Shown: piece by piece, positions 62 to 28,313 of the stretch | How positions within the stretch are numbered: the first letter of the stretch is position 1 | Layout of the letters: every line of letters begins with the position of its first letter | Notes under the pieces: generated by a model | The model's input: the letters and a program-made list of their open reading frames with translations, nothing else | What the model was told of the DNA's origin: nothing | The model's database searches: none | Source of the DNA: Tolypothrix carrinoi HA7290-LM1 | GTDB lineage: Bacteria > Cyanobacteriota > Cyanobacteriia > Cyanobacteriales > Nostocaceae | Assembly: GCA_019358935.1 (NCBI GenBank) | Contig: JAHHIK010000106.1 | Span: 1-28,435, forward strand | DNA length: 28,435 nt | Direction: 5' to 3' | Translations under genes and position numbers: made by a program

Positions 62-119
62 ATTTTATTGCTTTACTGTCCCAAAGCGATCGCCTAAATC
101 AATAACTAGCAACTTAGGT

Positions 120-2121: not shown

Positions 2122-3216
2122 TCAACTTACTTTTAAACGTCCTTGCATCCAATCAAATCTTTTTCCAGCTAGCGCCATACGATCTAAAACATTGGAATCG
2201 AGTTCATCCTCATATTCAATATTTTCATCCAGTGGCTGACCTTTGCTATAAACACGTCTGCCATAACCAAGCCGACTGAGCATACCCTGCAATCTTAAGA
2301 TAAGCATAATCGCGATCGCTCGATAAAAGCGGGATGCAAAACCAACATCTTGCTGTAATTTTGCTGCCAGTTGCTGTCGAGAAATCGATAACACAAGCGA
2401 GTCTTCAAGCGCTTTTATTGTTGTGGAGGGCAAGCGGGCATCAATGAAGGGTGTTTCTCCCACAATTTCGCCTTTAGATAATCTCGCTATTTCTCTAGTT
2501 GAGATTTCGCCACCCTCTATAGCTGCAAAGGCACGAGCTAAAGGATTGCACTCATCCTCAGAAATAGAAACTGACATTGTTCCACCCAGTATAATATACA
2601 GCGCATCCACTGGTCCCTGTTCGTGGATGAGTACAGTGTTAGCAGGTATTTTTTGCGGATTACCTGTAGCCATCATCCAATCGATGTCACTGTCATTCAT
2701 TTCCCCTAACACACATAACACATCCTTCAGTGGCTGACCTTGTGCAAGGTTACTACGACTAAGCTGATTGATGATGCTTTGCAGTCTGTCTGAGAGCATA
2801 ATAGCGATCGCACGATAAAAGCGCGAAGCAAAACCCACATCATCAAGCAATTTTGCTGCCAATTGCTGCTGGGGAATTGACATCACCAGCGACTTTTCAA
2901 CAGCCTTAACAGTGGTGGTAGTTGGACGAGTACCTAAAAAAGGGATTTCTCCTACTACTTCACCGCTGGAAAGCCGCGCAATCTCTCTACGTGAAGTTTC
3001 ATTACCCTCGATTGCCGCAAAAGCACGAGCCAGAGGATTGTTGCCCGGTTGTGAGACAGTAACTGTTAAAATTCCCTCTAGTAGGATATGTAGGGAATCG
3101 GCGGCTTTTCCTTCTTGGACGAGTACGGTGTCTGCTGCTATTTCTCGCCGACGACCTGTAGCAATTATCCAATCGATGTCACTGTTACTCAATTCTTTAA
3201 GTAGAACTTCTGTCAT
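2122..3216 (-). CDS. Tandem cyclic-nucleotide-binding-domain protein, bacteriocin-type transport-associated (TIGR03896-like)
   Basis: Two homologous halves (SDIDW..ATG, NPLARAFAAIEG, REIARLS.GE.VGE.PF and DVGFASRFYRAIAIML each occur twice) with cNMP-fold motifs. This family is known to accompany NHLM export operons, and one is present in this window. RBS-like AGGT upstream. Confidence 0.88.
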   Translation of the reverse strand: MTEVLLKELSNSDIDWIIATGRRREIAADTVLVQEGKAADSLHILLEGILTVTVSQPGNNPLARAFAAIEGNETSRREIARLSSGEVVGEIPFLGTRPTTTTVKAVEKSLVMSIPQQQLAAKLLDDVGFASRFYRAIAIMLSDRLQSIINQLSRSNLAQGQPLKDVLCVLGEMNDSDIDWMMATGNPQKIPANTVLIHEQGPVDALYIILGGTMSVSISEDECNPLARAFAAIEGGEISTREIARLSKGEIVGETPFIDARLPSTTIKALEDSLVLSISRQQLAAKLQQDVGFASRFYRAIAIMLILRLQGMLSRLGYGRRVYSKGQPLDENIEYEDELDSNVLDRMALAGKRFDWMQGRLKVS

Positions 3217-3259
3217 AAGTCGATTTACCTATGTTTTTTAGGAGAATTTAAGGAAAATG

Positions 3260-3441
3260 AACCGCAGAGGCGCAGAGAGGAGGACACTTCCGTGCGGGGG
3301 TTCCCAAGCCACTGCGTTGCGGTGAGTCCACTCGGCGGTGTCGGTTTGGGTCCCGTCGAAGTGGCGAACCCGAAGGGAGGTTCCCTCCGTTGAAGCATGT
3401 GGCGTCCCCGTTAAGGAACGTGTCCGTCGCAGAGAAGAGAA
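3260..3441. repeat. Nested small dispersed palindromic repeats (four levels)
   Basis: Level 1: AACCGCAGAGGCGCAGAG...CGCAGAGAAGAGA. Level 2: GGACACTTCC (3282-3291)...GGAACGTGTCC (3415-3425). Level 3: GCCAC (3308-3312)...GTGGC (3399-3403). Level 4: 3323-3377, CCACT...AGTGG plus CCC-GAA-GGG. Confidence 0.75.
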
Positions 3442-3488
3442 TGCAGCACTAGGCACATTGATGCCCCAGTACTTTTCGGACAAGAGTT

Positions 3489-3599
3489 GATCCCCCCGCC
3501 TGTGGCGACCCCCTTTTAAAGGGGGTTGGGGAACATAGCCCCCCTTTTTAAGGGGGTTGGGGAACATAGCCCCCCTTTTTAAGGGGGGTTGGGGGGATC
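3489..3599. repeat. MITE-like palindromic element with three internal C-run/TTTTAA/G-run hairpins
   Basis: Ends GATCCCCCC (3489-3497) and GGGGGGATC (3591-3599) are perfect inverted repeats. The internal hairpins recur with a period of about 31 nt, separated by TTGGGGAACATAG. Confidence 0.8.
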
Positions 3600-3644
3600 T
3601 GCAAAGAATAAACATCACTAACTGACAAGTATTGCTTTAATGCC

Positions 3645-4811
3645 TTATGCAGATATAGTTTTCTGCAACTCTTCTAAGGTTTGTTGGATGCGGAAGTTTG
3701 CCGACTTTGAAGCCAATTCTTCCAAGGTTAAGTGGGTTAAGGCAATCAACATCAAAGGTTGAATATTGATGTCTATTAACTCGCTTGCATGGTCGGTGTG
3801 AAAGCGCTGCAAATTTTCTGCGGCTGCTTTCACCAATGCCTGTAGAATTTTAAAAGCGCGATCGCAAAGCGGGGGTTGACCCAGGTAGTTTTGCATCCTG
3901 CCTCCTTCTCGGTAATGTGGAAACGACTCCAACCCCACAAAGCGTAAGAACCAGTCTGCTCGATAGTAGCCGATAGCGGCTACAATGCCTCTGTAGTCGG
4001 CAATTAATTCGTCGAGGATATTATTTCGCATTGAGTCAAACAAGCGACGTGTGAAGTAGTGCGTACATTCATGTTCCAGCCTAATGGTTAGGGATAAACG
4101 CTGCCATTCTAGTTCCTCAAGTCCCATGTCCTCGGCTGAAACGTCGCTATAGAAACCGTCACTCAAAATAATGAACCGATCCTGATAGAGCGTTTTTTGT
4201 GGTATAATATTGCGAAATTCTGCCGCCCAACTACTTTCGCAGTAATTACCATTTGTAGCTGACCATTGTTGGCGATAGCGGCGAATTCTGTCCCAGTTGT
4301 TGAAACCAGCAACCATACAGGCTCCCATAGAAGCTGGGACTAGTTTGGGTTCATTTTGCATTGTGAGCGCTTGTACAAGAGTTACAAAGTCTTCTCGGTT
4401 TCCAGTCAGCAAAACCGGGATGGTTCCTGCCAAGCTTTGATGTATTATCAACTGGAGTTTCTCAGGCAGCGTAAGAATCAAACCAGTTGCTTCGGGTATA
4501 TTATCCACGGTCACACCCTTACGGGTGGCAGAGCGATATGCTTCGGTTTGGCTGATGCCTTCGAGTATGGGAAATCGAAACTGCACCAGACGCTGCTTTA
4601 GTGCCTCAAATGCTCCTATAACTCTTGCTGCAACAGCGTACTCCTCCCAAACGGTAATATGGGCTTCAGGTGCAAGTGGAAACTTGACGGCATGTTTTAA
4701 ACATTTGTGCGAGAAGAGATTTTGATTGTAAGCAAGCAGCTCCTCTGTTTGGGAGGCACTAGCACCATAGGAGGCAAGTACCAAAATGCGAAATTCCTGT
4801 TGATTGCTCAT
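3645..4811 (-). CDS. Uncharacterised HExxH-motif protein (putative metallopeptidase or metalloenzyme)
   Basis: 388-aa soluble ORF with HECTH (nt 4073-4059) followed 16 residues later by the E of DELIADY, a gluzincin-like layout. The start overlaps the MinD stop (ATGA). Confidence 0.8.
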   Translation of the reverse strand: MSNQQEFRILVLASYGASASQTEELLAYNQNLFSHKCLKHAVKFPLAPEAHITVWEEYAVAARVIGAFEALKQRLVQFRFPILEGISQTEAYRSATRKGVTVDNIPEATGLILTLPEKLQLIIHQSLAGTIPVLLTGNREDFVTLVQALTMQNEPKLVPASMGACMVAGFNNWDRIRRYRQQWSATNGNYCESSWAAEFRNIIPQKTLYQDRFIILSDGFYSDVSAEDMGLEELEWQRLSLTIRLEHECTHYFTRRLFDSMRNNILDELIADYRGIVAAIGYYRADWFLRFVGLESFPHYREGGRMQNYLGQPPLCDRAFKILQALVKAAAENLQRFHTDHASELIDINIQPLMLIALTHLTLEELASKSANFRIQQTLEELQKTISA

Positions 4812-5620
4812 AAGCGATCGCTTGCAATAAGTACTTTCTTTGTCTCACCCTCACCAACAATCTGTTCCGCAATTTCTTTCATCATCTGACTGATGGGATG
4901 CCCAGAGTAGCGCAGACAGAAAATACCTCTGCTGGCTAGGTGAATCATCTCTTCAGACAAAGGTAAAATACCAGCGACTGAGACGTTATAAGTTGTCTCC
5001 ACTTGTTTTTGCAAGTCTGCAAAGTCGAAGGCTGGTAGCACCTTATTGACTACCAACAGCATTTTAGGTACTTTCAGCTTGTGAGCTACATCCACCGTCA
5101 CGGCTGTTCCCTGAAAGTCTTGGCTGTCTGGACGCAGAATAACAACTAGAACATTAGATATACCGATGGAAAGTAAAGTTTCTTCATTCAAACCTGGGTG
5201 AGTGTCAATTAACAGGTAGTCCAGATTCAGACAGCGGATGAGTTCCTGAAAGCCGTCATTGAGCCGAACTACGTCATACCCCTCGCGCAGAACTCTGGCA
5301 ATTTCACCAGCTTTAATACTAGAGGGAATTAGGTAAACTTTGCCCTTAATCGTATTTGTCTCTTCCTGTGCTATGAGAGTAGGACTAACGTCGTAAGCAG
5401 TGTCTTTAATATTACAGCGTCCCCACAAATAATCATTCAGGGCACGATCCATTTTTTCTTCGTTTAGACCGAAAAGAACGTGAATTCCTGGCGATTGGAT
5501 ATCAGTATCGACAATGCCTACCCGTTGCCCGTGTTGTGCCATAGTAGCAGCTAGGTTAGCAATCAAATTTGATTTGCCAGTTCCGCCACGGAAAGAGTGA
5601 ACAGCTATAATTTGTGCCAT
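4808..5620 (-). CDS. MinD/ParA-family (SIMIBI) ATPase
   Basis: Deviant Walker A HSFRGGTGKSN, switch I VDTDIQSPG, Walker B LLIDTHPG and VVNK motif; GAGG RBS; no obvious C-terminal amphipathic membrane-targeting helix. Confidence 0.9.
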   Translation of the reverse strand: MAQIIAVHSFRGGTGKSNLIANLAATMAQHGQRVGIVDTDIQSPGIHVLFGLNEEKMDRALNDYLWGRCNIKDTAYDVSPTLIAQEETNTIKGKVYLIPSSIKAGEIARVLREGYDVVRLNDGFQELIRCLNLDYLLIDTHPGLNEETLLSIGISNVLVVILRPDSQDFQGTAVTVDVAHKLKVPKMLLVVNKVLPAFDFADLQKQVETTYNVSVAGILPLSEEMIHLASRGIFCLRYSGHPISQMMKEIAEQIVGEGETKKVLIASDRL

Positions 5621-5634
5621 ATTTTACCTCAAAA

Positions 5635-5935
5635 TTGTTAGTTGGTGGGTGTTAGTTGTTAGTTGGTGGGTGTTAGTTGTTAGTTGTTAGTTGTTAGTTG
5701 TTAGTAGGGAGTTAGGAGTTTGGAGTTAGGAGTTGCGAGTAGAAAGTTAGGAGTTAGGAGTTAGGAATTAGGAATTAGGAATTAGGTAGTTAAGAATTAT
5801 TACTCTCCTTGTCTCCTTGTCTCCCTTGTCTCCTTGTCCTCCTTGTCCCCTTGTCCTCCTTGTCCTCCTTGTCCTCCTTGTCTCCCTTGTCCTCCATCCC
5901 CCCATCCCCCCATCCCCCTACTCCCCACTCCCCAT
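5635..5935. repeat. Composite short-tandem-repeat tract (STRR-type heptamers plus 8/9-mers)
   Basis: (TTGTTAG)n at 5635-5705, (GGAGTTA/GGAATTA)n to about 5790, (CTCCTTGTC/CTCCCTTGT)n at 5803-5893, (CCCCCCAT)n and CCCCACT to 5935. It fills the whole intergenic region and the last codons of the upstream gene. Confidence 0.92.
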
Positions 5936-8536
5936 ACCTGGAAATGTGAACTTTAAAGAGCAAGCATCGCTGACCAGAGGTAGCAAAACTTTTCCGTTGG
6001 ACAGCTTCAGGTCAAACTGCATATTCTTGTTTCCACTTTCGACTTCCACAAGTGCAGGTAAACTCTTGGAGTCTCCGCTAAAGTTGCTTTTGTGTGTCCA
6101 TACTCTCAGTTCCTTTTCGTGCTTGGTTGGTAAGCGGAAGATGGCATAACGCAGGGACGAAAGTGATGGAATTTCCACAGTGGCAGACTTAATATGTTGC
6201 TCACCCTCGGCATATCCCAACCGCACCTCTGCCATCTTCGGTTGTCCACCAGCAGCGATCGCGAAGACGGATTGCCCTCCTGGGTACTGTCGTAGCTCTA
6301 CTACTACACGGTTCGTGAAAGCTCCATAGCGTTTCATGACAAGAGTCGCTAAAAGCGATAGCAAGGCAATGCACAATGCACCGATCCGCGCTACAGGATT
6401 TTCCCAGATGAACAGACCGTGGAGGAGCAGAATCCCTAAATAGAGACTGTATATACCGACACTGAAAACCGGATGATTCAGAATCTCCAAAACCACTCCG
6501 GGCACGAGTTCGCCCTTGCGCCGACTGGAAACTAACAAAAGAATTGGGAAAATACCGCCAACTAGGGAGTTACCGAGTACACCAGCAAATGCCAGTATAC
6601 TAGTAAAGGATTGCGTACCAGCAAGCAAAAGCCACTCAGTTAGTAGGAAGACTAACACTAACGGGCTGATGGATAGCAAGAAACGACGCTGTTTCAATAG
6701 GGTTGCCCAAAACTGTTGTGTCAGCGCTTGCATATCAAGCTTATTAGTCTGACTTTGATTTTTAGGTGCAACACTAGCTACATCTGCCCTCAAATCTCCT
6801 TCGTAGGTTAGGAGCATTGGTGAGGTCAGTTGCAGACACGCATTATCTTCATTAGCCGATCGCACTTCTAGAGTCAGACGAGTATTCCACTTGTCCAATG
6901 GAAACTGCCCAAATAGCTCTTTAATGTCCCAACGCTGAGTAACTGTTATCTCTTGATGGTAAACTTTGCCGCTCGACTGGACATCTAAGCGAAACTTTGG
7001 CGCTTGTTCTGACAATCCCAAGTAGGTTATACCAATATGGGGAACACAACTGGGGTTGCCACAGGGGTGCAATATCAATGTTAAGAGCTTGCGAGGCAAC
7101 ATCAAGATCGGTCGCGCTCTTGCAGGCAACCATTCCCTAGCTAAGTTGAGCAGGAGACTGGAACTACGCAGCCAAGCCATTCCCAACAAAAGGATGATTA
7201 AGACTGCTCCCAAAACTCTGACGATGGAACCAACCTCAACAGCCAGTGGTTCCAGGACGGTGCCTGACTGCCCAACTAGTAACTGCGGTGCGATCGCTCC
7301 GTTGACTGCCAACACCCAAATGCAAAACAGCACAGTTAAAAAAGCAGTTCCTGCCACGCTACCCCAAATCAGTGAGGAAGCGCTCTTGTCACGGGGGAGT
7401 ATCAATTTGCCACATTCACCCACATACACATGTCCGAAGTAAAGCATCAAGCTAACACCGAGAATCCGCTGTAACATCCAAGGTTGGAAAGGATGACCAT
7501 CCAAAAAAGGTAAGTTGACATATAAAAGGTTGTCGAGTTCTACATGGCGAAATGCTAGCAATGACAGGATGAGGAGCAAACTAACGTTGATGGCTGCAAG
7601 CAATACCATCACCGCAACCGTGAAGTTAAGCGATGTCTGCGACAGCAGGTATAATCCAGCGAAGAAAAGCAACACGGCACACAGTGCTGCTGGTATGTGT
7701 GTAAAGTTTGCCATAGTCGTTGACAAACCGATGTAGCAAGCCAAGGCTATGAGAAAAACACGGATACTTACGGCGACAGAGAATATAAATGAGCCAGCAT
7801 ATCCTAAGTAGTTGGATACTAATTGTTTGATAAAGACATTGCCGTAACGAAAGTCACCACTACGACTAACAGCTTCAGCCATGCAAGCCATAGTTAGTAT
7901 GTTAATGGTGCCGATGATGACCAGAAAGGCAACAGTAACCAAGGGACCAACATCGGCTACAGCAATGGGCAAGGCTAAGAAAGCTTGGGGAAGACCTAGA
8001 GCAACGGTTACTGCATAGGCAAGCCAGAAAGGTGGCATTTCCTCCAGTCGTTGCGCGATCGCACTACTCTTCCAGCGCATTTGTTCGATTAGTGGCAGCT
8101 TAGATGCAAAGATTTTTTCTAGCTGTGTTCTGTACAAGCGCGAGTAACTCACCTGTACCGCTTTCTCATCCAAACCCAAAGCTGCCCGGATGTTAGGTAC
8201 TGCTTGATAGGTAAAGGTGTATTTTTGGCTGAGAGCGTGGGCAATGGCGGCTTTTAGTCTAGGGTTTTCCGGTAGGAGAAGTGTCCATTGTCGGGCGTAG
8301 CGTTCGAGGTGTTGGATGGTAGGGTGGAGTGGTGGCGCATTCAAGAAAGCAAAGGCTTCTAGGAAAGCTAAATCGCGCTCCGACGCAGCTTGCTCGGTAA
8401 GGGAAAATTCCACACGCGATCGCGCTACTATCTGCGCTGTTCGACTCTCAATCAAAAACAGCAAAGTATTCGCTCGTTTCGCTGGTAAACCCGCTAATAC
8501 TTCCTCACGCGATATCAGTTCATCATTGGATGACAT
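5918..8536 (-). CDS. Large multi-pass membrane protein, amino-acid permease (APC/aromatic amino acid transporter)-like, with soluble N-terminal, internal and C-terminal domains
   Basis: About 9 hydrophobic segments, a roughly 150-aa hydrophilic insert, then about 4 more segments. The TM1-like ALGLPQAFLALPIAVADVG resembles IGAGILALP...G of Trp/Tyr permeases. Start placed at ATG 8536 (MSSNDE, AGGTGA upstream) rather than TTG 8557. Confidence 0.75.
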   Translation of the reverse strand: MSSNDELISREEVLAGLPAKRANTLLFLIESRTAQIVARSRVEFSLTEQAASERDLAFLEAFAFLNAPPLHPTIQHLERYARQWTLLLPENPRLKAAIAHALSQKYTFTYQAVPNIRAALGLDEKAVQVSYSRLYRTQLEKIFASKLPLIEQMRWKSSAIAQRLEEMPPFWLAYAVTVALGLPQAFLALPIAVADVGPLVTVAFLVIIGTINILTMACMAEAVSRSGDFRYGNVFIKQLVSNYLGYAGSFIFSVAVSIRVFLIALACYIGLSTTMANFTHIPAALCAVLLFFAGLYLLSQTSLNFTVAVMVLLAAINVSLLLILSLLAFRHVELDNLLYVNLPFLDGHPFQPWMLQRILGVSLMLYFGHVYVGECGKLILPRDKSASSLIWGSVAGTAFLTVLFCIWVLAVNGAIAPQLLVGQSGTVLEPLAVEVGSIVRVLGAVLIILLLGMAWLRSSSLLLNLAREWLPARARPILMLPRKLLTLILHPCGNPSCVPHIGITYLGLSEQAPKFRLDVQSSGKVYHQEITVTQRWDIKELFGQFPLDKWNTRLTLEVRSANEDNACLQLTSPMLLTYEGDLRADVASVAPKNQSQTNKLDMQALTQQFWATLLKQRRFLLSISPLVLVFLLTEWLLLAGTQSFTSILAFAGVLGNSLVGGIFPILLLVSSRRKGELVPGVVLEILNHPVFSVGIYSLYLGILLLHGLFIWENPVARIGALCIALLSLLATLVMKRYGAFTNRVVVELRQYPGGQSVFAIAAGGQPKMAEVRLGYAEGEQHIKSATVEIPSLSSLRYAIFRLPTKHEKELRVWTHKSNFSGDSKSLPALVEVESGNKNMQFDLKLSNGKVLLPLVSDACSLKFTFPGMGSGE

Positions 8537-8920
8537 ATTAATCACCTGTAAAATCAAAGTTTTTCGGACTTACGCGACTCAAAGCTGGTTTTTGATCGCT
8601 ACAGAAAAGGTTCAGTCTTCGTCATTGCCTGATAAGAAATCAAGCATTGTTCCGTAATAAATAACTATAAGAACTACTACGGTTCTTGCTGCTATCTCCA
8701 GATAGGACATTTGTTTAGCAGCAACAGATGAGTGCTTGTGTCAGGATTGGGGTAATGAAAACCATAATTGTTCTGTTTCTTCGTATTTGATAGTGATAGC
8801 GCTGTTAAGTAGATTTTCTGCTTATTACTGTCGGGCTTTATTAATTGCCGTATAGTGTGGAACTCGTCAAATATTACAATGCACATTTTGGTTAATTTGT
8901 ATAGTGGGTAACTCTTGGTT

Positions 8921-10342
8921 TCATTCAGCTAACTCGCGCGATCGCTGTTTGATCGATTGCACCTGGCTCTGCAATCGCTCATAGTATTGCGTCTCAGTTT
9001 CACCTGAGCTTACCGCTTGCTCTCTGAGTTTTTGGATCTTTTTGTGTAAGGAGCGAAAGTGTTCATTCTCAGTAATTTCCACAAGGTCTTTTGCTCTTTT
9101 AGTTTCGTCAATCTCAACTTTTAGATTGATTACCTGCTGTTTCAGGTTTTGCTCTCTAGCCCTAACCTCACGAGCCATCTGTAGAAAGACACGCACCAAC
9201 CGCCCTATGTCGTCCTGAGTGCCAGACACAACAGTTAATTCCTGAGGATTGAAATTTTCCTGCTCCAGTGCTTGCGCTGCGGCAGTGAGGACGCGAATCG
9301 GTCGGGAAATGCTCCGTGCTAGAAACAGCGCTATGATTGCCGTGATTCCCCCCACTACCAGTACGCTGGTGCCGTTCAGCCAGATCAAACGCTTCAAGGG
9401 TGCTTCAAATTTTTCTTTGGGTTGGCTGACTCCCAACACCCAAGGTTGCTTCTCCAAGGGTGCGAAGCCAACTATCCGGGGCGTTTGGTTTATCGGAAAA
9501 CGATAGCTGGTGTGACCGAGTTGTTTTGCCCCCACCATCACCTTCAACTCTGGAATGTTCAAGCTTTTAATTTCATCAACACCATAACGTCTGTCGGTCA
9601 CCACCTGCTTTCGCGTTTCTGGCGACAAGGAGTTGAGACTATGGTAGAGTCGGGATTTATCGGGATGGCTGATGATTACCCCATGCTGGTCAACAAGAAA
9701 GGCGTAGCTCTCGGAGCCTACCGACAATGTATTAACGATCGCCCAAATATCTTCTCCTTTGATTTTAAGTACCGTCACTCCGACAATCTCGCCATTATCA
9801 GAACGCACGGGGTTGGAGAGAAAAAGCCCAGGTCGAGATGTGGTTTGACCGACAAGGATGCTAGAGACGTAGGAGTTTCCCTGGATGCTAGAGCGAAAGT
9901 ATTCGCGGAAGGCGTAGTTTTGACCAACGAATGTTGGATCGGTGGAAGCGAGACATCGACCAAATTTATCGATGATAAAGACAGCATCAAACTCTGGGTT
10001 AGAGCGGAAGATGTTTGAGAGTGTCCATTGCAGATTGGAGCGGAAGGCTGCTTGCTTTGCGCTTTCTTTTGAAGCCAGCAAACCCACCACATTGCGATCG
10101 CTGCTAACTTGAAATACAACCCGCTGAATATCGATAATTAGCCGATCCAGGCGACTGGCAGTACTAGCGGCTGACAACTCCAGTTTGCGGTATTCGCTTG
10201 CCTCCACACTTTCTAAGCTTTGTCGCAAATTGTAGTATGCGGTGAAGCTCATCGGTGCGATCGCAGCCACGAGCAATGCTGCCGAAAGTTTGGCAGCAAT
10301 CGACCAGGCAGGCGGGTAAAATAACCGATGTGTAAGCTTCAT
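8921..10342 (-). CDS. dCache-HAMP transmembrane sensor without kinase, MCP or cyclase output domain
   Basis: TM1 (AKLSAALLVAAIAPM), dCache motifs (GQNYAFREYF, FLSNPV, YAFLVDQHGVIISHPD, PWVLGVSQP), TM2, HAMP (ISRPIRVLTAAAQAL...DDIGRLVRVFLQMA), then only about 80 aa of coiled-coil tail. Confidence 0.88.
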   Translation of the reverse strand: MKLTHRLFYPPAWSIAAKLSAALLVAAIAPMSFTAYYNLRQSLESVEASEYRKLELSAASTASRLDRLIIDIQRVVFQVSSDRNVVGLLASKESAKQAAFRSNLQWTLSNIFRSNPEFDAVFIIDKFGRCLASTDPTFVGQNYAFREYFRSSIQGNSYVSSILVGQTTSRPGLFLSNPVRSDNGEIVGVTVLKIKGEDIWAIVNTLSVGSESYAFLVDQHGVIISHPDKSRLYHSLNSLSPETRKQVVTDRRYGVDEIKSLNIPELKVMVGAKQLGHTSYRFPINQTPRIVGFAPLEKQPWVLGVSQPKEKFEAPLKRLIWLNGTSVLVVGGITAIIALFLARSISRPIRVLTAAAQALEQENFNPQELTVVSGTQDDIGRLVRVFLQMAREVRAREQNLKQQVINLKVEIDETKRAKDLVEITENEHFRSLHKKIQKLREQAVSSGETETQYYERLQSQVQSIKQRSRELAE

Positions 10343-10354
10343 TCTGATTTTAGA

Positions 10355-10474
10355 TTGTTAGTTGTTGGTTGTTAGTGGTTAGTTGTTGGTTGGAGCGTTG
10401 GAGCGTTGACGGTTAACAGTTAACCACTAACCACTAACCACTATCCATTAACCACTATCCATTAACCACGCTCC
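10355..10474. repeat. Inverted pair of heptamer arrays around a perfect palindrome
   Basis: (TTGTTAG/TGGTTAG)n and (GGAGCGTT)2, centre GGTTAAC-A-GTTAACC (10411-10425), then seven TAACCAC/TATCCAT units and GCTCC. The right array is complementary to the left. Confidence 0.85.
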
Positions 10475-10485
10475 CAGTCTCTCAT

Positions 10486-11448
10486 TCACTCCCACAGCAA
10501 CACAGAAGGAAGTGATTCTGGATACGCCAACCTCAGTAGTTCATAACCGATGCCGGCGGTGCCTTGAAAGAAACCAGGATTGTAAACATCTCCGGGAAGT
10601 TCGGGAAACAGGTAAAAAGCACCGACTTGCTTTGCTCTTGCGACAAGCCATGCCGCTTGTTTTTGGACAGTATTCCAAAGTTCCGGATGCGACAGCTTAG
10701 AAGTTGCTAGCAAAAGTACCTCCATCCTGCCAAAGTTACCGCAGCAGAGATGGTCGAGGTTCTGTAAACCAAACTGTTGAGTTGTGTTGATAGCGGCTGC
10801 AATTTCTTGCCGAATTTCTGGAGTATCGAGAATTTCTAGACCCCCCAAACGACCTAAACCAATGCCAGGAGCGCCGTGACACCAACTGGTCATAAATGTT
10901 GGTTTATTCTCCCTTACGTCTTGCCAATTTCCGGTGCTGGGGGAAAATAAACTGCGTTCGTAGGCGATCGCTTCTTCTGCTGCTTCCAGAAAAACTGTTT
11001 CTTGCGTGATTTTATACAATCGCAGTAAAGCGTAGGCAATGCCCGCAGCACCATGAGAAAATCCTGTTGCTAACTTACCTTCTAAAGTTGCCCAAGCTCT
11101 AAATCCAGAATCGCTCTTGGTGCGGTTAATCAGTAGGTGATAACCTAAGGCAGTAGCTCGATCTAGAATTGCTGGATCTGATGAAGCTTGGTATAAACTT
11201 AGTAATCCCAGTATTGCCCCTGCCGAGCCAGCGATTGTGTCAAATTGGCGATCGCTTGCAATACTTTCCTGAGTTATTAACAATGCTCCCTGGCTGGCAA
11301 TATCTAGAAGCTGCGGTTCATTCAAAAACTGACTAATTCTAACTAAGGTATAAACGATAGACCCTAATCCAGTGGCTCCACCGATACCGATTTGCTTAGT
11401 AAATTTACGCTGAGAATTTGGGTCTGTGTCCTGCGTCGGTTTGCTCAA
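10486..11448 (-). pseudogene. lanM: 3' fragment of a class II lanthipeptide synthetase LanM (LanC-like cyclase domain only)
   Basis: LanC motifs GSAG, GFSHGAAGI, SWCHGAPGIG, HLCCGNFG and PGFFQGTAGIGYELLR...LPSVLLWE (typical LanM C-terminus). It begins at a TTG with no clear RBS, an in-frame TGA lies 6 codons upstream, and the dehydratase domain is absent. Confidence 0.85.
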
Positions 11449-21344: not shown

Positions 21345-22793
21345 ATGTTAAACCAAAAAAACAGCTTATTCCGAAAAGAGTCACTAGAGCGTTTATCTTC
21401 TCCTGAAAGATTAGACCAGCTGATGCAAGTAGTCAGTCCCAAAAGCTGGCTACCTCTACTTGCCTTGGGTTCCTTGGTGGGAGTAGGCATTGTCTGGAGT
21501 ATTTATGGACGCATTCCTATCACCGTCGAAGGTCGCGGAGTACTGATTTACCCGCGCAAAGTTGTACCACTGCAATCAACAAGCTCAGGGCAGTTACTTG
21601 CTTTGAATGTCAAAGTTGGGGATGTCGTCAAAAAAGGGCAGGTGCTGGCAACAATTGACCAACAGGACTTACGCAAACAACTGCAACAGCAGCGAGCTAA
21701 ACTAACGGAACTACAGTCACAAGACCAAGCTATCAATTCACTGCAAGGGGTACGAACCGAACAGGAAAAAATCTCGATGCAGCAGCAACAGCAGTATTTC
21801 CAGCAACGCATACGAGAACTTCAAGCCGTGACACCTCAGCTCAAAACCAAAGGCAATGACTCTATTAAACAGCAACGCCAGGGTTTGCAACAACGCATCC
21901 GGGAAGCCCAAACTCTAACCCCCGTTTTCAAGAAGAGAATGGAAATCCGCAAACATTTACGAGAGACAGAAAAAGCGATTTCAGGTGATGAAGTTCTCAG
22001 GGCAGAACAGGAATATTTAGAGAATTTGCAAAGAATTTCTGAACTCAAAACCCAGTTAAAGGAACTAGATGTTAGGGAGACTGAACAAGAAAAGGCTTAT
22101 CGTGAAAACCTGAGTGCAATCTCGGACTTTCAATCTCAGTTGAAACAACTCGACAGCAAACAAGCAACTCAAGCTCAAGAAGACCTGCAAACTTCAACTA
22201 CCCGGAAAAACGAGATTCAAGAAATCAAGCGAGAGATTGCCAAACTAGAACTGCAACTACGCAATAACAGCTTGATTATCAGTCAACACAACGGACGCAT
22301 TCTCGAAATCACTCTTACACCCGGAATTGTTGTGAGTGCGGGAACCCGTTTGGGGAGCATAGATGAGGAAAATCCATCTAGCAAGCTGGTTGGCATTACT
22401 TATTTTGCGATCGCTGAGGGCAAGAAAATTCAAGCGGGTATGCCAATCCAAATTACCCCCCAAACCGTTAAACGAGAACGCTTTGGCGGCATCGTGGGTA
22501 CTATCACCAGTGTCTCACCATTTCCGATCACCAAAGAAGGAGCCGCTAGTACGATCGGCAATTCAGAAGTGGTGGAAGGTCTAGTATCTCAAAAACAAGA
22601 AGGAGTAATGCAAGTATTCGCTGACCTCAAACTGGATTCCACCACTCCGAGCGGCTACAAGTGGTCTTCTTCCACAGGACCCCACCTAAAAATCTCTTCT
22701 GGAACTACGAGTGTTGTTCGAGTCAAAGTCGAAGAACGCGCTCCGATCACGTATGTTCTACCTATTTTGAGGTCTTTCAGTGGTTTCAACTAA
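21345..22793 (+). CDS. NHLP/NHLM bacteriocin system secretion protein, HlyD family (TIGR03794-like)
   Basis: Signature N-terminus LFRKESLERLSSPERLDQLMQVV, one TM, a long Gln-rich coiled coil, VKRERFGGIVG, SGYKWSSS.GP and APITYVLP; AGGAG RBS. Confidence 0.93.
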   Translation: MLNQKNSLFRKESLERLSSPERLDQLMQVVSPKSWLPLLALGSLVGVGIVWSIYGRIPITVEGRGVLIYPRKVVPLQSTSSGQLLALNVKVGDVVKKGQVLATIDQQDLRKQLQQQRAKLTELQSQDQAINSLQGVRTEQEKISMQQQQQYFQQRIRELQAVTPQLKTKGNDSIKQQRQGLQQRIREAQTLTPVFKKRMEIRKHLRETEKAISGDEVLRAEQEYLENLQRISELKTQLKELDVRETEQEKAYRENLSAISDFQSQLKQLDSKQATQAQEDLQTSTTRKNEIQEIKREIAKLELQLRNNSLIISQHNGRILEITLTPGIVVSAGTRLGSIDEENPSSKLVGITYFAIAEGKKIQAGMPIQITPQTVKRERFGGIVGTITSVSPFPITKEGAASTIGNSEVVEGLVSQKQEGVMQVFADLKLDSTTPSGYKWSSSTGPHLKISSGTTSVVRVKVEERAPITYVLPILRSFSGFN

Positions 22794-25086
22794 TCCCACC
22801 TTAGTAACACCTAATTTACCTTTACAGCACTTGCAAAAACTACTGCAAGGCAAAGGCATACGGCGTGTAAAAACCCCCACTCTCCTACAAATGGAGGCAG
22901 TGGAATGTGGTGCTGCTGCTTTGGGAATTATTCTCAGTTACTATCGTCGGATTGTGCCGCTGCCAGAACTGCGTCAACAGTGCGGAGTCTCCCGCGATGG
23001 TAGCAAGGCTTCTAATATGCTAAAAGCTGCTAGAAACTATGGACTCCAGGCGAAAGGCTTTAAAAAGGAACTGAAGCAACTGCAAGAACTGCGTCCTCCC
23101 TATATTGTGTTTTGGAACTTTAACCACTTCCTGGTAGTCGAGGGATTCCGCAAACAGCAGGTTTATCTTAACGACCCCGCAACTGGACCGCGAACTGTGT
23201 CCCTACAAGAATTTGATGAGGGATATACCGGAGTGGTGCTAGTTATGGAACCAAGCACTGAATTCAAAAAAGGTGGTCGCAAACCCAGCATGTTTTTATC
23301 GTTGCGGTCACGGCTACAAGGTGCTGCTGGTGCTTTAGTTTACTGTATAATTGCGGGATTTTTCTTAACTATTGTTGGGCTGGCAGTACCCGTATTCAGC
23401 CAGGTTTTTGTAGACGACATCTTGGTTGAGCAACGGCTGCACTGGCTGCGTCCGCTGCTTTTGGTAATGGCGATCGCCACCGTACTCCAAGGGTGGCTAA
23501 CACTATTGCGGTTGCACTACCTGCGCCGTTTGAAAATCAAGCTGGCTGTCGGCATGTCCAGCCGCTTTCTCTGGCATATCCTGCGCTTACCCGTTAGTTT
23601 CTACGCTCAACGGTTTGCCGGAGAAATCACTAACCGCACCAGCCTTAACGACGAAGTTGCTGATGTCCTTTCGGGAAAGATGGCGACTACGGTCATTGAT
23701 GCGGTCATGGTGATTTTTTACGCTTTAGTCATGCTTCAATATGACTGGGTACTGACATTAATTGTCGTTAGCTTTGCAGCGGTGAATGTCTTTACCTTAC
23801 AGTGGATTTCCCGTCAACGTGTAGACGCTAATCAGCGATTGATACAAGAGCAGGGCAAAGCTGCTGGCGCGTCTATTGCCGCTCTGCAAAGTATAGAAAC
23901 ACTTAAAGCATCAGGCTTAGAGTCAGATTTCTTTTCTCGGTGGTCAGGTTACTACACCAAGGCTATCAATTCTCAGCAAGAACTAGGGGTAACAAATCAG
24001 ACATTTGCAGTCTTACCTACACTACTGTCCGCTCTTTCGTCCATGCTGCTATTGGTTGTAGGCGGTTTACGAGTGATGGATGGACACCTAAGCATCGGGA
24101 TGCTCGTAGCTTTTCAAGGTCTGATGCAAAGTTTCGAGGAACCAGTGAACAATCTTGTCAACTTCGGCAGTACCCTGCAAGAACTGGAGGGCAATTTGAT
24201 TCGCTTAGATGATGTGCTGGATAACCCGGTAGGGGAGAGGGGGAGAGGGGGGGATGGGGGAGCAGGGGGAGCAGGGGGAGATGGGGGACAAGGGGGACAA
24301 GGGGGAGCAACATCGACAACATCCTTCTCTGTGCCTCTGCCTAGATTGCAGGGGTATGTGGAGTTGCGAAACATTACATTTGGTTATAGCCCCTTAGACC
24401 CCCCCTTGATTGAAAACTTTAACCTTTCAATTAAACCCGGACAGCGAGTAGCTTTGGTAGGTGGAAGCGGTTCTGGCAAGTCTACCATTGCCAAAATCGT
24501 CAGCGGACTTTATCAAGCGAGTGAGGGAGAAATTCTCTTTGATGGTAAACCTAGAGAGGAAATTCCCCACCAACTACTTACTAACTCTGTTGCAATGGTG
24601 GAACAGGATATCCTGCTGTTTGGCGGAACTGTGAGGGACAATTTAACTCTTTGGGATGCGACGATATCAGACAAAAACCTGATACGCGCTTGTGAGGATG
24701 CAGCGATCGCCGATGTTGTTCTCTCAATGTCTGGGGGATACGATGCAGAACTGATAGAAGGTGCTGCAAATTTAAGTGGAGGTCAGCGACAACGGCTGGA
24801 AATTGCCCGTGCTTTCGTAAATAATCCCTCGATACTCGTCATGGATGAAGCTACCAGCGCCTTGGATGCGGAAACGGAAAAAATCATTGATGAGAATCTC
24901 CGACGACGGGGATGCACCTGTATTATTGTCGCACACCGATTAAGTACGATTCGAGACTGTGATGAAATCATTGTCCTGGAACGCGGAAAGGTGGTGCAAC
25001 GAGGCACTCATCAACAATTGTGGCAAGTCGAGGGTGTGTACTCGCGGTTGATTCGCACGGAAGGGGAAGCGTTGGAGGAGGGATGA
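22780..25086 (+). CDS. NHLP-family bacteriocin export ABC transporter, C39 peptidase/permease/ATPase (TIGR03796-like)
   Basis: C39 triad QMEAVECGAAAL (Cys), WNFNHF (His), LNDPA (Asp); ABC membrane domain; Walker A GGSGSGKST, signature LSGGQRQR and Walker B ILVMDEATSALD. GTG start overlaps the HlyD gene end; exact start uncertain. Confidence 0.95.
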   Translation: MVSTNPTLVTPNLPLQHLQKLLQGKGIRRVKTPTLLQMEAVECGAAALGIILSYYRRIVPLPELRQQCGVSRDGSKASNMLKAARNYGLQAKGFKKELKQLQELRPPYIVFWNFNHFLVVEGFRKQQVYLNDPATGPRTVSLQEFDEGYTGVVLVMEPSTEFKKGGRKPSMFLSLRSRLQGAAGALVYCIIAGFFLTIVGLAVPVFSQVFVDDILVEQRLHWLRPLLLVMAIATVLQGWLTLLRLHYLRRLKIKLAVGMSSRFLWHILRLPVSFYAQRFAGEITNRTSLNDEVADVLSGKMATTVIDAVMVIFYALVMLQYDWVLTLIVVSFAAVNVFTLQWISRQRVDANQRLIQEQGKAAGASIAALQSIETLKASGLESDFFSRWSGYYTKAINSQQELGVTNQTFAVLPTLLSALSSMLLLVVGGLRVMDGHLSIGMLVAFQGLMQSFEEPVNNLVNFGSTLQELEGNLIRLDDVLDNPVGERGRGGDGGAGGAGGDGGQGGQGGATSTTSFSVPLPRLQGYVELRNITFGYSPLDPPLIENFNLSIKPGQRVALVGGSGSGKSTIAKIVSGLYQASEGEILFDGKPREEIPHQLLTNSVAMVEQDILLFGGTVRDNLTLWDATISDKNLIRACEDAAIADVVLSMSGGYDAELIEGAANLSGGQRQRLEIARAFVNNPSILVMDEATSALDAETEKIIDENLRRRGCTCIIVAHRLSTIRDCDEIIVLERGKVVQRGTHQQLWQVEGVYSRLIRTEGEALEEG
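24232..24309 (+). repeat. In-frame G-rich 9-mer repeat tract encoding a 26-aa Gly-rich linker
   Basis: GGGGGAGCA, GGGGGAGAT and GGGGGACAA units; 78 nt encoding GERGRGGDGGAGGAGGDGGQGGQGGA between the membrane domain and the NBD. Confidence 0.9.
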
Positions 25087-25150
25087 GGGGATGGGGGGAT
25101 GGGGGGACAGGGGGACAAGGGGACAGGGGGGACAAGGGGGACAAGGGGGA
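25087..25150 (+). repeat. G-rich 8/9-mer repeat tract between the two ABC genes
   Basis: GGGGAT, GGGGGGAT, GGGGGGACA and GGGGGACAA units; same family as 24232-24309 and the complement of 5803-5917. Confidence 0.9.
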
Positions 25151-25162
25151 GATTATTGAGAA

Positions 25163-28057
25163 ATGAGTAAAATGCTATTACAGGGAAAAGTTTATCAAGT
25201 TAAAGGCAATGAGCCGATACTTCTGGATGACCCTTTTAAGGTTTGGGTGATTCAGTCTGGCTCTATGGCGTTGTTTGCCGTCACAGTTAAAAATGGTGTT
25301 ATAGAAGGGACTCGCCGTTATCTATTTAGTATTAGTCAGGGTGAGGCACTTTTCGGAACTGCTGCTGGTGGCGATCGCCAGCGTCTAATTTTGGCAGTGC
25401 CGATGGGGGAGACAGAATTGCTACAAGTAAATCAAGAATGTTTCAGAGAATTAGTAGCGAATGCAGATGTTAGGGCGATCGCCTGGATAAAAGCTTGGTT
25501 GAGGCTACTTAGTACTGCATTCCAGACAAGCACGCCAGCAATTCAGGTGAAAGCTTCTGGACAAGCACGATTTTCTTTAATTAATGGTCAGACTTTCCAG
25601 CCGGAAGCGAATGTTGTTTCTTGGGTTGAGCTAACTCAAGGGACTGTCCGCTTTCTGGGGTTTGAGGAATTGACTTTGACGACCGCAGCAGGAATTTTTC
25701 CCCTCAATGACGAAATGTGGTTAGAAGCAGTGGAGGAAGTTCAGCTTGCCAGTGTTGCTACTTCAGAAATCCGCAACGCAGATATCCTGCTTCAAGGGCT
25801 GTCCCAGCTTCATACTCAAATTTTGCACTGCACTTACCTTTTAGATGAGCAAGAAGCGCAAGAAGAAATACAACGGTTGCGCGATCGCCAACGCCTCAAT
25901 CGTCAAGTTACAGCGGAGGCTATAGGAGAGCTTGCATCAACCCTGAATTATCAAGATGGGGACTTTTTCAAAGAAGGTACGCCTTTGTTAGTCGCTGCTG
26001 GTGCGGTAGGAAAAGCGATGGGTGTAAAAATCCGCCCCCCTGCTCGCTCAGAAAATCTCAAACGGGTTAAAGAGCCGTTGGAAACAATTGTCCGGGCTTC
26101 GCGCATCCGGATGCGACGGGTGCTGTTGCGGGACAATTGGTGGCAAAAGGATTCTGGTCCATTAATTGCTTACACTCAGCAGGACAACCGACCAGTGGCG
26201 CTGCTGCCAGTTTCTGCAACTCGCTATGAAATCTTTGACCCAGTTGAGCAGACCCGCGTTCTTGTGGATGAGCGCACAGCCGCGACACTAGCTCCCGTTG
26301 CCTATATGTTTTATCGGTCTTTGCCCGATAAAGCACTCAAAGCTTTCGATTTACTTCAGTTCGCACTTAAAGGGCGCGGTTCAGAGTTAATTGTCATTTT
26401 GATGACTGGCATTACCGTGACATTACTGGGAATGGTCACACCCCAAGCAACTGCGATTCTTATGGATAACGCGATTCCAGATAGCGACAGGGGGTTATTG
26501 CTGCAAGTTGGATTGGGGCTTTTGGTTGCTGCTTTGGGGACAGCTTTATTTCAGCTAACTCAGGGGTTTGCTATCCTGCGGATGGAAACGGCTAGTGACG
26601 CTTCTACTCAAGCAGCCGTGTGGGATCGGTTGCTGAACCTGCCTGTATCTTTTTTTCGTCAGTACACAACAGGCGACCTTCAGTCCCGCGTATCATCGAT
26701 TAGTACAATCCGTCGCCAACTCAGTGGTAAGACGCTGATAAATCTGATTAGCAGTCTCTTCGCACTGTTTTACTTGGGGCAGTTGTTTTACTACAACTTC
26801 AAATTAGCTTTAGTTGCTGTTGCTGTAGCTTTAGTTGCGATCGCTTTCACCACCTTTTCTGGTGTACTCCTCCTCCGCAAGGTGCGTCCACTACTGGAAT
26901 TGCAGGGAAATATTTTTGGACAGACGGTGCAGTTAATTAACGGAATTTCTAAATTGCATGTTGCTGGTGCTGAGGATCGCGCCTTTGCTTCTTGGAGTAA
27001 AAACTACAGTCGTCAAGTTAAGCTGGAACTTAGCACACAGCAAGTTGAAGATGTTGTTGCACTTTTCAATACTGTGATGCCTACACTAACTTCTGGAATA
27101 CTTTTTTGGTTTACCATGAGTTTACTTGAAGAGACTCAGACTTCAGGAGGTATCGGACTATCCCTTGGCACTTTTTTAGCTTTCAATACAGCCTTTGGTA
27201 GCTTTATTAGGGGAGCGACAGACCTAAGTAATACAGCTACTGAAGTTTTGCAAGTCATTCCTCAGTGGAAACGCACCCAGCCAATTTTGGCAACCGTACC
27301 GGAAGTGAATCTCACTAAAGCCGATCCTGGCAAGCTTATAGGCAGAATTTTTGTGGATCGTCTTCGCTTTCGCTATCGGAGTGAAGGACCGCTGACACTG
27401 GATGATATAAGTATCTCTGCGGAGCCTGGGGAGTTTATTGCCCTTGTAGGCGGTTCTGGAAGCGGTAAATCAACGATATTGCGATTATTACTGGGGTTTG
27501 AGACTCCCGAAGCTGGTACTATCTACTACGATGGTCAAGATTTGTCTGGGTTAGATGTTGACGCAGTGCGGCGACAGTTGGGTGTTGTCTTGCAGGGTGG
27601 TCAACTGACATCAGCTTCGATTTTCGAGAATATTGCTGGTGGTGCTCAGATTACCCTAGATGAAGCCTGGGAAGCAGCCCGGATGTCTGGCTTTGCTGAC
27701 GATGTTGCCGCGATGCCAATGTCCATGCATACAGTGATTAGTGAAGGAGGTGGCAATCTTTCTGGGGGACAACGACAGCGACTGCTGATTGCTCGCGCTT
27801 TGGCATTAAAACCCCGAATTTTGCTATTCGATGAGGCTACTAGTGCTTTAGATAATAGAACCCAGGCAATTGTTAGTGAAAGTTTGGAGAAACTGCAAGT
27901 TACCCGGATAGCGATCGCCCATCGCCTCAGTACAATCCGCAAGGCACACCGTATATATGTACTCCAAACAGGGCAAGTTGTGCAACAGGGTAGTTTTGAG
28001 GAATTAGCTTCTCAGTCAGGGCTGTTTGCCCAGTTAATGGCTCGGCAGATGGCTTAG
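25163..28057 (+). CDS. NHLP bacteriocin export ABC transporter permease/ATPase (TIGR03797-like) with N-terminal cNMP-like region
   Basis: N-terminal LLDDP.KVWVIQSG...RRYLFSI.QGEALFG beta-barrel-like region, a peptidase-like region without the Cys motif (WWQKDSGPL, PVALLP, YEIFDP), ABC membrane domain, GGSGSGKST, LSGGQRQR and LLFDEATSALD. Confidence 0.95.
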   Translation: MSKMLLQGKVYQVKGNEPILLDDPFKVWVIQSGSMALFAVTVKNGVIEGTRRYLFSISQGEALFGTAAGGDRQRLILAVPMGETELLQVNQECFRELVANADVRAIAWIKAWLRLLSTAFQTSTPAIQVKASGQARFSLINGQTFQPEANVVSWVELTQGTVRFLGFEELTLTTAAGIFPLNDEMWLEAVEEVQLASVATSEIRNADILLQGLSQLHTQILHCTYLLDEQEAQEEIQRLRDRQRLNRQVTAEAIGELASTLNYQDGDFFKEGTPLLVAAGAVGKAMGVKIRPPARSENLKRVKEPLETIVRASRIRMRRVLLRDNWWQKDSGPLIAYTQQDNRPVALLPVSATRYEIFDPVEQTRVLVDERTAATLAPVAYMFYRSLPDKALKAFDLLQFALKGRGSELIVILMTGITVTLLGMVTPQATAILMDNAIPDSDRGLLLQVGLGLLVAALGTALFQLTQGFAILRMETASDASTQAAVWDRLLNLPVSFFRQYTTGDLQSRVSSISTIRRQLSGKTLINLISSLFALFYLGQLFYYNFKLALVAVAVALVAIAFTTFSGVLLLRKVRPLLELQGNIFGQTVQLINGISKLHVAGAEDRAFASWSKNYSRQVKLELSTQQVEDVVALFNTVMPTLTSGILFWFTMSLLEETQTSGGIGLSLGTFLAFNTAFGSFIRGATDLSNTATEVLQVIPQWKRTQPILATVPEVNLTKADPGKLIGRIFVDRLRFRYRSEGPLTLDDISISAEPGEFIALVGGSGSGKSTILRLLLGFETPEAGTIYYDGQDLSGLDVDAVRRQLGVVLQGGQLTSASIFENIAGGAQITLDEAWEAARMSGFADDVAAMPMSMHTVISEGGGNLSGGQRQRLLIARALALKPRILLFDEATSALDNRTQAIVSESLEKLQVTRIAIAHRLSTIRKAHRIYVLQTGQVVQQGSFEELASQSGLFAQLMARQMA

Positions 28058-28147
28058 ACCAAAGTTTTCTTTTAATCGCTCTAGCGCGTTATGAATTATG
28101 AATTACGCTCTTATTAATTATTTGGTCAAGTCTTCATCCATCTAGAC

Positions 28148-28206
28148 CTCCGCGCATTGTACTCCCGCCACACCGGAACGGTTGGCGGCGAAGGGGAATT
28201 GCGGAG
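28148..28206. repeat. GC-rich extended stem-loop downstream of the export operon
   Basis: CTCCGC (28148-28153)/GCGGAG (28201-28206); CCGCCA (28165-28170)/TGGCGG (28183-28188); ACCG-GAA-CGGT apex. Confidence 0.6.
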
Positions 28207-28290
28207 CGTAAAGAATTTCATTATCAAGTCGCGCATTGGCTGGTTAACTCCTATGACTTAATTGTTTTTGAGAACCTGAATATCAAAGGG

Positions 28291-28313
28291 TTAGCTAGAA
28301 CACGACTAGCTAA
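28291..28313. promoter_or_regulatory. Perfect 8-7-8 inverted repeat (operator-like)
   Basis: TTAGCTAG-AACACGA-CTAGCTAA. The structure is certain; the function is not. Confidence 0.35.

Follow-up and report, generated by a model that had tools for sequence, protein, structure and literature searches.

The window analysed here is a stretch of 28,435 nt from the cyanobacterium Tolypothrix carrinoi HA7290-LM1 (contig JAHHIK010000106.1). It contains a unit of five genes, among them a membrane sensor that ends in a short unnamed tail and a MinD-like ATPase of a distinct clade. The tail and the ATPase keep company across phyla, and in many proteins they are fused. On balance we favour the reading, drawn from sequence comparison, that the tail is a mobile signal output that would bind the clade ATPase and change its ATP cycle when the domain upstream senses a ligand. 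Whether this amounts to a new signalling class of ATPase-coupled receptors, in which one helix module on thousands of proteins would switch a dedicated SIMIBI ATPase as output hub, we regard as evenly balanced. We give the same even weight to the outline of such a class: it would span Cyanobacteria, Chloroflexota and scattered other phyla, its outputs would be transporters, enzymes and a winged-helix regulator, and its logic would resemble that of G proteins.

The sensor (8921..10342, minus strand, 473 residues) was delimited by Pfam and NCBIfam scans and by comparison with the Protein Data Bank (PDB). It has two transmembrane (TM) segments in the order TM-dCache_1-TM-HAMP-tail, with dCache_1 at residues 52-243 and HAMP at residues 340-394. 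In the same scans its last 79 residues match no output domain, and it lacks the HisKA and HATPase output of DctB histidine kinases. The tail itself (residues 397-446; 9005..9154, minus strand) is a conserved motif of about 45 residues with the consensus LKxQVxxLxIEIDxxKRxxQVAEITETxxFQxLQxKAxxLR; it has no match in Pfam, NCBIfam or the PDB sequences, and we treat it as an unnamed predicted output domain. Its last helix is amphipathic and basic (mean charge +2.8). A second copy of this helix forms an internal repeat in the window sensor (residues 448-467; 8942..9001, minus strand), and some CHASE2-tail proteins (P0001) hold about six copies. A helix that is basic, amphipathic and repeated fits a binding motif.

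The tail is widespread. Searched against 1.84 billion representatives, its profile matched 2,313 clusters (50% identity) at E ≤ 0.001, of which 844 pass 1e-10, and in 142 of the 149 top representatives it lies within 40 residues of the C-terminus. Input domains were scanned with Pfam in 77 of the 149 top matches (most of those of at least 200 residues) and in the tail proteins of related loci. The tail follows at least ten input types, including dCache, sCache, CHASE2, CHASE4, MASE1, PAS, GAF, receiver (REC) and HisKA-receiver; also found before it were a full hybrid kinase, the cyclic nucleotide monophosphate (cNMP) fold, FHA, Ser/Thr kinase, PrsW-cNMP, an ECF S-component and Tll0287. Attachment is in a fixed register: the tail Asp follows the HAMP motif DE(I/L)GxL by 36 residues in each of 214 distinct tails, whose linkers form 12 clusters at 60% identity, and the same spacing holds in 238 of 243 with a looser HAMP motif. 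For PAS domains the distance from the DIT motif to the tail is 24 residues in 11 of 12. Locus L087 has a paralogue in which the same HAMP and first half of the tail lead on into a SpoIIE phosphatase; the tail therefore sits in the slot of a catalytic output. An operon at L107:4643-9999 (genome G106) encodes a receiver, a hybrid kinase, a HisKA-receiver-tail protein and a cNMP-tail protein, with the sole clade ATPase 1.2 Mb off; in this operon the tail is the end of a phosphorelay.

The ATPase (4808..5620, minus strand) matches ParA/AAA_31/CbiA, with Pfam ParA and CbiA above cut-off. The hallmarks of ParA/MinD (SIMIBI) proteins are present: the P-loop (G12-K16), the Asp pair of switch I (D38, D40) and the Walker B Asp (D139) are invariant in 72 of 72 clade members. 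The Walker A motif of the clade reads HSFRGGTGKS, with Arg in place of the signature Lys; this Arg is found in all 72 and in 87 of 91 tail-ATPase fusions. The accessible text on McdA (PMC8684754) indicates that the ParA/MinD family tolerates loss of the signature Lys, and on that precedent the Arg marks a subclass. Cell-division MinD was considered and rejected: the TIGR01968 and TIGR01969 cut-offs are missed (54.8 versus 212.9 and 89.1 versus 201.75 bits), and clade proteins end shortly past the last core helix, with no C-terminal membrane helix. The canonical MinD of this genome, with a C-terminal extension, is on another contig (C32), and neither minC nor minE occurs in the window. DNA-partition ParA/Soj was rejected as well. 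The clade has LPLS(E/D)(E/D) instead of the IPRS/IPKS of paralogues (IPR/IPK in two of the ParA paralogues of the genome), and the IPR arginine of ParA/Soj has a DNA-binding role. The family is acidic (median isoelectric point 5.3, above 7 in 2/72). Its closest solved relatives are the archaeal-type and Aquifex-type MinD structures 1HYQ and 4V03 (E 3e-15 and 8e-13), and FleN structures are matched at E 6e-10. Positioning by ParA/MinD-type (A/D) ATPases depends on a membrane or nucleoid as matrix, and their partner peptides are positively charged (bioRxiv 2022.06.09.495121, as far as its accessible text goes). Since the clade ATPase is acidic and has neither a membrane nor a DNA anchor, it is better read as a soluble switch than as a gradient motor. 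In some loci the ATPase genes come in pairs, an intact copy with one whose Walker A is degenerate (L131:5074-6595, L134:8997-10578, L136), suggesting heterodimers.

Among 251 cyanobacterial genomes the tail was found in 42 and the ATPase clade in 44, with both in 40 and neither in 205; both partners are thus present in 40 of the 46 genomes with either. Within these genomes 37 of 62 tail matches lie within 10 kb of the ATPase. Five genomes (G106, G170, G174, G210 and G228) retain both partners more than 1 Mb apart, which linkage alone does not explain. For Chloroflexota (201 genomes) the ATPase was found in 29, all with the tail, and the tail only in two more (29/31 with either). For Planctomycetota (131 genomes) the counts are four for the ATPase and two for the tail, adjacent in both tail genomes. 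Presence and absence of the two also agree within several families. The genomes are kin rather than independent, and co-occurrence is therefore given without a p-value. A distance correlation of 0.82 between paired tails and ATPases reflects shared ancestry and was not counted, and a profile comparison of the tail with the ATPase gave no match.

Fusions supply a separate line of evidence. The tail was scored (at least 20 bits) in the best 120 of 204 longer ATPase-clade proteins and is fused in 91 of these 120. In every case it precedes the ATPase, the linker being 8-82 residues long, and 80 of the 91 have no Met at the usual ATPase start. A tree of all eight cNMP-type, all seven dCache-type and 19 of the 76 receiver-type (HisKA/REC) fusions places the three types in three separate clades (support 0.993, 0.999 and 0.998), implying at least three fusion events. 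The cNMP-type fusion, which retains the Met, looks like a recent read-through. An earlier note on this DNA had proposed that the bare C-terminal helix of the sensor signals to the MinD-like ATPase. Co-occurrence in two phyla, the three fusion clades and the fixed HAMP spacing all speak strongly for that proposal, while its binding step is one that we infer. The link is also far more general than the note had proposed, embracing many input types and several phyla.

We hold it very probable that the tail and the ATPase act together. By analogy with the partner peptides of ParA and MinD, the last basic amphipathic helix of the tail would probably bind the acidic ATPase directly. Somewhat less firmly, we expect that the ligand signal would run from Cache to HAMP, in its fixed helical register, and on to the tail contact, toggling the ATP-dimer state. 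A more tentative step is that the switched ATPase might act on interchangeable neighbours: the winged-helix protein in many genomes, elsewhere transporters or a glutaminase, and in Nostocales the permease with DUF7005 and TIGR03896. In Nostocales the switch would have been recruited beside lanthipeptide export, perhaps tuning export to carbon or nitrogen metabolites.

Gene neighbourhoods were surveyed in the best 80 of 150 ATPase-centred loci, which were annotated; close relatives dominate them and several end at a contig edge. Near the ATPase were found the tail (61 loci), a Cache sensor (50), the tandem cNMP protein (46), DUF7005 (39), LanM or exporter genes (38), the permease (34) and the winged-helix protein (13).

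Several observations weigh against this mechanism. One partner only is present in 6 of the 46 cyanobacterial genomes with either, two of the four Planctomycetota genomes with the ATPase gave no tail match, and 19 of the 80 loci have no nearby tail, some of these at contig ends. Covariation between tail and ATPase does not exceed that of shuffled pairings (top z 4.6 versus 5.1-5.8; 193 unique pairs, effective number of sequences 81). The A/D partner peptides known from the accessible text of bioRxiv 2022.06.09.495121 are N-terminal. The invariant spacing reflects in part one inherited HAMP-tail unit, the median linker identity being 58%, and the Arg at the signature Lys makes ATPase activity uncertain. 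The loci do not share any one downstream target, and the Tolypothrix carrinoi genome has no cognate winged-helix protein (best score 31 bits, against 60-126 for most members).

That winged-helix protein is a candidate effector of the ATPase. The small MarR-like family (about 105 residues) adjoins the ATPase in the 13 loci counted above and in most Chloroflexota loci examined; examples are L060:10790-11110, L109:7550-7864, L116:11117-11389, L130:5462-5806 and L130:2362-5232. The domain is also fused to ATPase-like copies, including degenerate ones (L083, P0465, L072, L075, L078, L070), and is inserted in the permease of L130. Throughout the 80 loci it is never found with DUF7005/TIGR03896 or peptide genes. 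Other neighbours include MFS, SDF or AEC transporters, binding proteins, cyclases, partner-switch genes and glutaminase. In several lineages a glutaminase gene lies next to the ATPase (L098:10815-11849, L102:3941-4975, L119:7167-8198) or is fused to it (P0400), a possible nitrogen-metabolism output. Tail and ATPase also lie in slr1658/slr1659 or SpoIIE-antisigma-STAS partner-switch cassettes (L101:6469-7460, L114:6136-7085, L116:12249-14608, L142, L143), some of which hold a glycogen-debranching-type enzyme.

Positioning could account for the same pairing: the tail would serve as a tag that lets the ATPase place or cluster signalling proteins, in the manner of ParC or McdA with their cargo, and no signal would pass. 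Positioning is the job of characterised ParA/MinD proteins with charged partner peptides, a single ATPase serves several tail proteins per genome (up to seven in G074), and repeated helices would add avidity. The explanation is nevertheless unlikely. The ATPase is acidic and has neither the MinD membrane helix nor the ParA IPR/IPK motif, a tagged Cache-HAMP-tail protein would be left without any output, and in the fusions the ATPase is the terminal domain of a sensor. A passive tag, moreover, would not require a fixed register.

Less probable still is a decoy or reversed flow, in which sensors without an output would titrate the ATPase or team up with catalytic paralogues (phosphatases, kinases, cyclases). 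The ATPase would then not be their output but would control them, perhaps by reading ATP/ADP. Tail and ATPase genes do often lie in partner-switch cassettes (slr1658/slr1659, SpoIIE, STAS) or near adenylate cyclases and hybrid kinases; L087 has one paralogue with SpoIIE and one with the tail, and degenerate second ATPase copies exist. However, the window and the Nostocales units have no catalytic signalling gene, and the dCache-HAMP-tail-ATPase fusions are self-contained.

The earlier note had assigned the five genes to a single pathway, in which a secreted peptide would be sensed, taken up and processed; we now consider that model very improbable. Much of its description of the locus stands. 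The five genes are co-directional, all on the minus strand where the note had placed them; Pfam and NCBIfam scans find no kinase, receiver, methyl-accepting chemotaxis or cyclase domain among their products; and the ATPase stop and DUF7005 start share a four-base ATGA overlap (4808-4811), exact instances of which are rare (2/39 related loci). The neighbourhood survey proposed in the note bears out a conserved module, with all five genes together in 27 of the 80 loci. Each of the five is single-copy in the genome by full-length similarity. Gene order is preserved in relatives with median intergenic gaps of 33, 96, 34 and 85 bp, and this order and the short gaps suggest an operon-like unit beyond chance. 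The gaps in Tolypothrix carrinoi are wider (about 360, 300 and 430 bp), and short tandem repeats fill part of them: intergenic regions 3509-3594, 5635-5918 and 10350-10469 hold tandem repeats of 7-9 bp units, which with a 31-bp G/C-run repeat widen the gaps. Scans for promoters and terminators gave chance-level counts (11 versus 11.4 and 12 versus 9.6). The unit is real but mosaic, its members being lost independently of each other.

The HExxH protein (3645..4811, minus strand) belongs to DUF7005 (E 3e-172) and is a predicted divergent zincin-like metalloenzyme. H247, E248, H251, D267 and E268 are invariant in 75 of 75 homologues, giving an HExxH motif and a downstream Glu on the next helix. 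The single-sequence fold reached a predicted local distance difference test score (pLDDT) of 34, and an alignment-based model (pLDDT 95.7) was used instead; in it the HExxH and E268 are predicted on adjacent helices (233-258 and 265-280). The model has no Foldseek match at E ≤ 0.001, and the protein has no meaningful PDB sequence match. VIA-align comparisons are weak (Z 3.6-4.5); rows with at least 160 aligned residues include thermolysin (Z 4.2, 187 aligned, root-mean-square deviation (rmsd) 5.6), lugdulysin (Z 4.3, 181 aligned, rmsd 5.7), collagenases and an M36 protease. Atlas matches, all below 0.9, are leads only. The protein has no hydrophobic segment. Of the 251 cyanobacterial genomes 13 have DUF7005, full-length in 12; no more than 3 kb separates it from the ATPase in 11 of 13 full copies. 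Of 47 DUF7005-centred loci (at least 9 kb, some duplicates), 42 have RiPP (ribosomally synthesized and post-translationally modified peptide) genes, 29 the ATPase and 22 the tail. DUF7005 accompanies RiPP exporters or LanM whether or not the ATPase is present, and the claim that it processes an imported peptide is not borne out.

The last gene of the unit (2122..3216, minus strand) encodes a tandem cNMP-fold protein of TIGR03896 (411.5 bits, cut-off 161.05). The Arg of the P-R-[SAT] motif belongs to the phosphate-binding cassette of canonical cNMP receptors; this motif is absent from TIGR03896 proteins (0/94 homologues). TIGR03896 also occurs in genomes without the ATPase. Like DUF7005, it is an optional addition to the core pair, and both are linked to peptide exporters.

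The peptide context of this copy is damaged. The lanM gene described in the note as a remnant is indeed one: 10486..11448 (minus strand) corresponds to residues 769-1088 of the 1088-residue LanM of a relative, the cyclase domain only, and a search of the assembly did not turn up the remainder. An NHLM-type peptide exporter (HlyD, C39-ABC, ABC; 21345..28057, plus strand) passes model cut-offs; it is 11 kb from the unit on the opposite strand, and in many relatives it is on the same strand after the cNMP gene. The unit adjoins the lanM remnant but not the exporter. One Nif11 precursor was found in the genome, on another contig, and no NHLP precursor was found, in a search whose own control gave no signal either. 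An intact class II lanthipeptide/NHLM cluster is not present, LanM being partial and the exporter displaced. Because the unit has lost most of lanM, a peptide-related role of the Tolypothrix carrinoi copy may be vestigial.

The permease (5918..8557, minus strand) was recognised from relatives and hydrophobicity as an amino-acid-permease-like membrane protein with soluble N-terminal, inserted and C-terminal domains; relatives suggest an ATG at 8536 rather than 8557. Eleven hydrophobic segments exceed the threshold, in blocks of seven and four around the soluble insert. The note had called it split, which is right for the two membrane blocks, but they belong to one open reading frame and not two genes. 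The window protein has no Pfam or NCBIfam match. Its likeness to Aa_trans/Trp_Tyr_perm clusters in the Atlas is 0.96, and the relatives in L130 and L138 match both Pfam families above cut-off. TM1 reads ALGLPQAFLALP in the window versus ETVGAGI(L/M)ALP in L130/L138, a difference by which transport may be altered. A single-protein query found the permease in 4 of the 251 cyanobacterial genomes, versus 44 for the ATPase, and in Chloroflexota loci L130, L137, L138 and L144 it accompanies tail and ATPase without DUF7005 or peptide genes. It is an optional partner of the tail/ATPase system, which does not sit with its claimed place in one peptide pathway.

Nor does the sensor look like a peptide receptor. 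Its best PDB matches are 3BY9 (E 1.4e-12) and DctB 2ZBB/3E4O, and it has DctB-like periplasmic pocket motifs (YAFREYF, GQTTSRPG, LKIK). Its RxYF motif, GxT/S loop and distal-pocket Lys, which we take to be the ligand contacts of DctB-type pockets, align with 3BY9/2ZBB. Among 57 sensors the pocket residues are kept in 43 (R), 44 (Y), 40 (F) and 53 (K), with 8-12 rows gapped at RxYF. A pocket that aligns best with DctB and retains RxYF and Lys predicts a small carboxylate as ligand, not a peptide, and the claim that the system senses a peptide is set aside on the likeness to the DctB dicarboxylate site. Some Cache-HAMP-tail sensors have a Nif11-type RiPP leader fused to the N-terminus (L002:9063-10796, P0007, P0009, P0013, P0018, P0019, P0024, P0090), a direct link of precursor-like sequence to sensor. 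In ATPase-DUF7005-cNMP-exporter loci without a Cache-tail sensor, another protein is often beside the ATPase, with a shared N-terminal domain of the type MD..Q..L.F.D.L...K.G.HL..LQ..I; some of these proteins are large, with WD40-like ends (L010:6833-10480, L179:2287-4068, L190:1799-3598, L198:3-3704, L212:3500-4885).

The single peptide pathway thus has on its side the 27 complete loci, 26 of them beside LanM or exporter genes, the closeness of DUF7005 to the ATPase and the Nif11 leaders on some sensors (L002, P0007 and others). These are outweighed by the independent loss of permease and DUF7005, the permease without DUF7005 in Chloroflexota, the many DUF7005 loci with RiPP genes but without ATPase or tail, the DctB-like pocket and the absence of a hydrophobic segment in DUF7005. 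Mere hitch-hiking on a shared mobile island, with tail and ATPase functionally unlinked, would suit the patchy distribution and the position of the unit among two-partner secretion (TPS) genes beside a broken lanM, but is scarcely credible given co-retention of unlinked genes in two phyla and three separate fusion clades.

Those TPS (filamentous haemagglutinin-like) genes, 106-1956 (minus strand) and 16639-20931 (plus strand), flank the unit and lanM remnant in opposite orientation. The same pair also brackets a sigma/DUF1822/CHAT-CHASE2/DUF928 block, and the gene at 106-1956, which ends close to the contig edge, carries 195-bp repeats. A rearrangement probably truncated lanM and moved unit and exporter apart. 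Positions 28100-28330, after the ABC transporter, resemble by eye part of a transposase gene of the IS200/IS605 family.

The output defines the class of a bacterial sensor: kinase, cyclase, phosphatase, chemoreceptor tip or DNA-binding domain. If tail and ATPase work as we propose, the missing output is named for a large set of proteins (the 2,313 clusters) annotated as truncated kinases or as plain Cache, HAMP or response-regulator proteins, an orphan MinD-like clade gains a partner, and ParA/MinD proteins extend from cargo positioning to signal relay. If positioning is true instead, the system is a variant within A/D systems. The open literature, subscription journals and supplements being outside its scope, gave no description of the tail-ATPase system or of a role for DUF7005 or TIGR03896; what it did offer were lists of genes or papers on other matters, and the accessible text of PMC7159879, PMC4558948, PMC12282138 and PMC6328274 holds nothing on the tail-ATPase system. 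The portion seen of PMC7766704 lists All2033 and All2797 (Anabaena PCC 7120) and Synpcc7942_0220 (Synechococcus elongatus) as extra MinD copies without function; All2033 and All2797 are 59% alike, and all three are 23-28% alike to true MinD. By these quoted identities alone the three fit the ATPase clade, and if they belong to it the idea is testable in standard laboratory cyanobacteria. Synpcc7942_0220 is called part of MinCDE in the accessible text of PMC7381316.

Each part has a familiar fold, but we found no system to match the whole, in which a non-catalytic output helix would couple diverse sensors to a SIMIBI ATPase; the arrangement is apparently undescribed. Group V cyanobacterial bacteriocin clusters combine a tandem CAP_ED protein, HlyD and two ABC transporters (PMC3140520, accessible main text, where ATPase, Cache, HAMP and MinD have no occurrence), and the NHLM exporter is defined in PMC2887384 (also seen in part). 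The CAP_ED, HlyD and ABC parts recur in the window, where lanM is broken and the exporter displaced. The A/D ATPases (MinD-MinE, ParA-ParB, McdA-McdB, ParC) are of the same P-loop family and share the short charged helical partner predicted here. In our system, however, the partner helix is C-terminal, behind HAMP, PAS, GAF or REC, there is no cargo, and the ATPase has neither a membrane helix nor the ParA IPR arginine, with Arg for the signature Lys. FleN/FlhG, the antiactivator of FleQ, is likewise a MinD-like ATPase that serves regulation and not division, and the winged-helix neighbour or fusion (P0465, L083, L130) could be an analogous target. Unlike FleN/FlhG, the clade ATPase has no flagellar genes or sigma54 activator nearby, and we know of no sensor-borne tail for FleN. 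DctB-type and other Cache-HAMP sensors (kinases, SpoIIE/SiaA phosphatases, cyclases) have the same input and transmission domains, and the DctB-like pocket is retained here, but the catalytic output is replaced by a tail of about 45 residues absent from the family libraries tested. Actinobacterial conservons consist of a sensor, a roadblock protein, a DUF742 protein and a small GTPase, the sensor having a kinase fold and the GTPase being Ras-like. Compared by description only, they share with our system the logic of a membrane sensor, an NTPase switch and a small helix-turn-helix protein; in our system the switch is a SIMIBI ATPase and the sensor ends in a non-catalytic tail.

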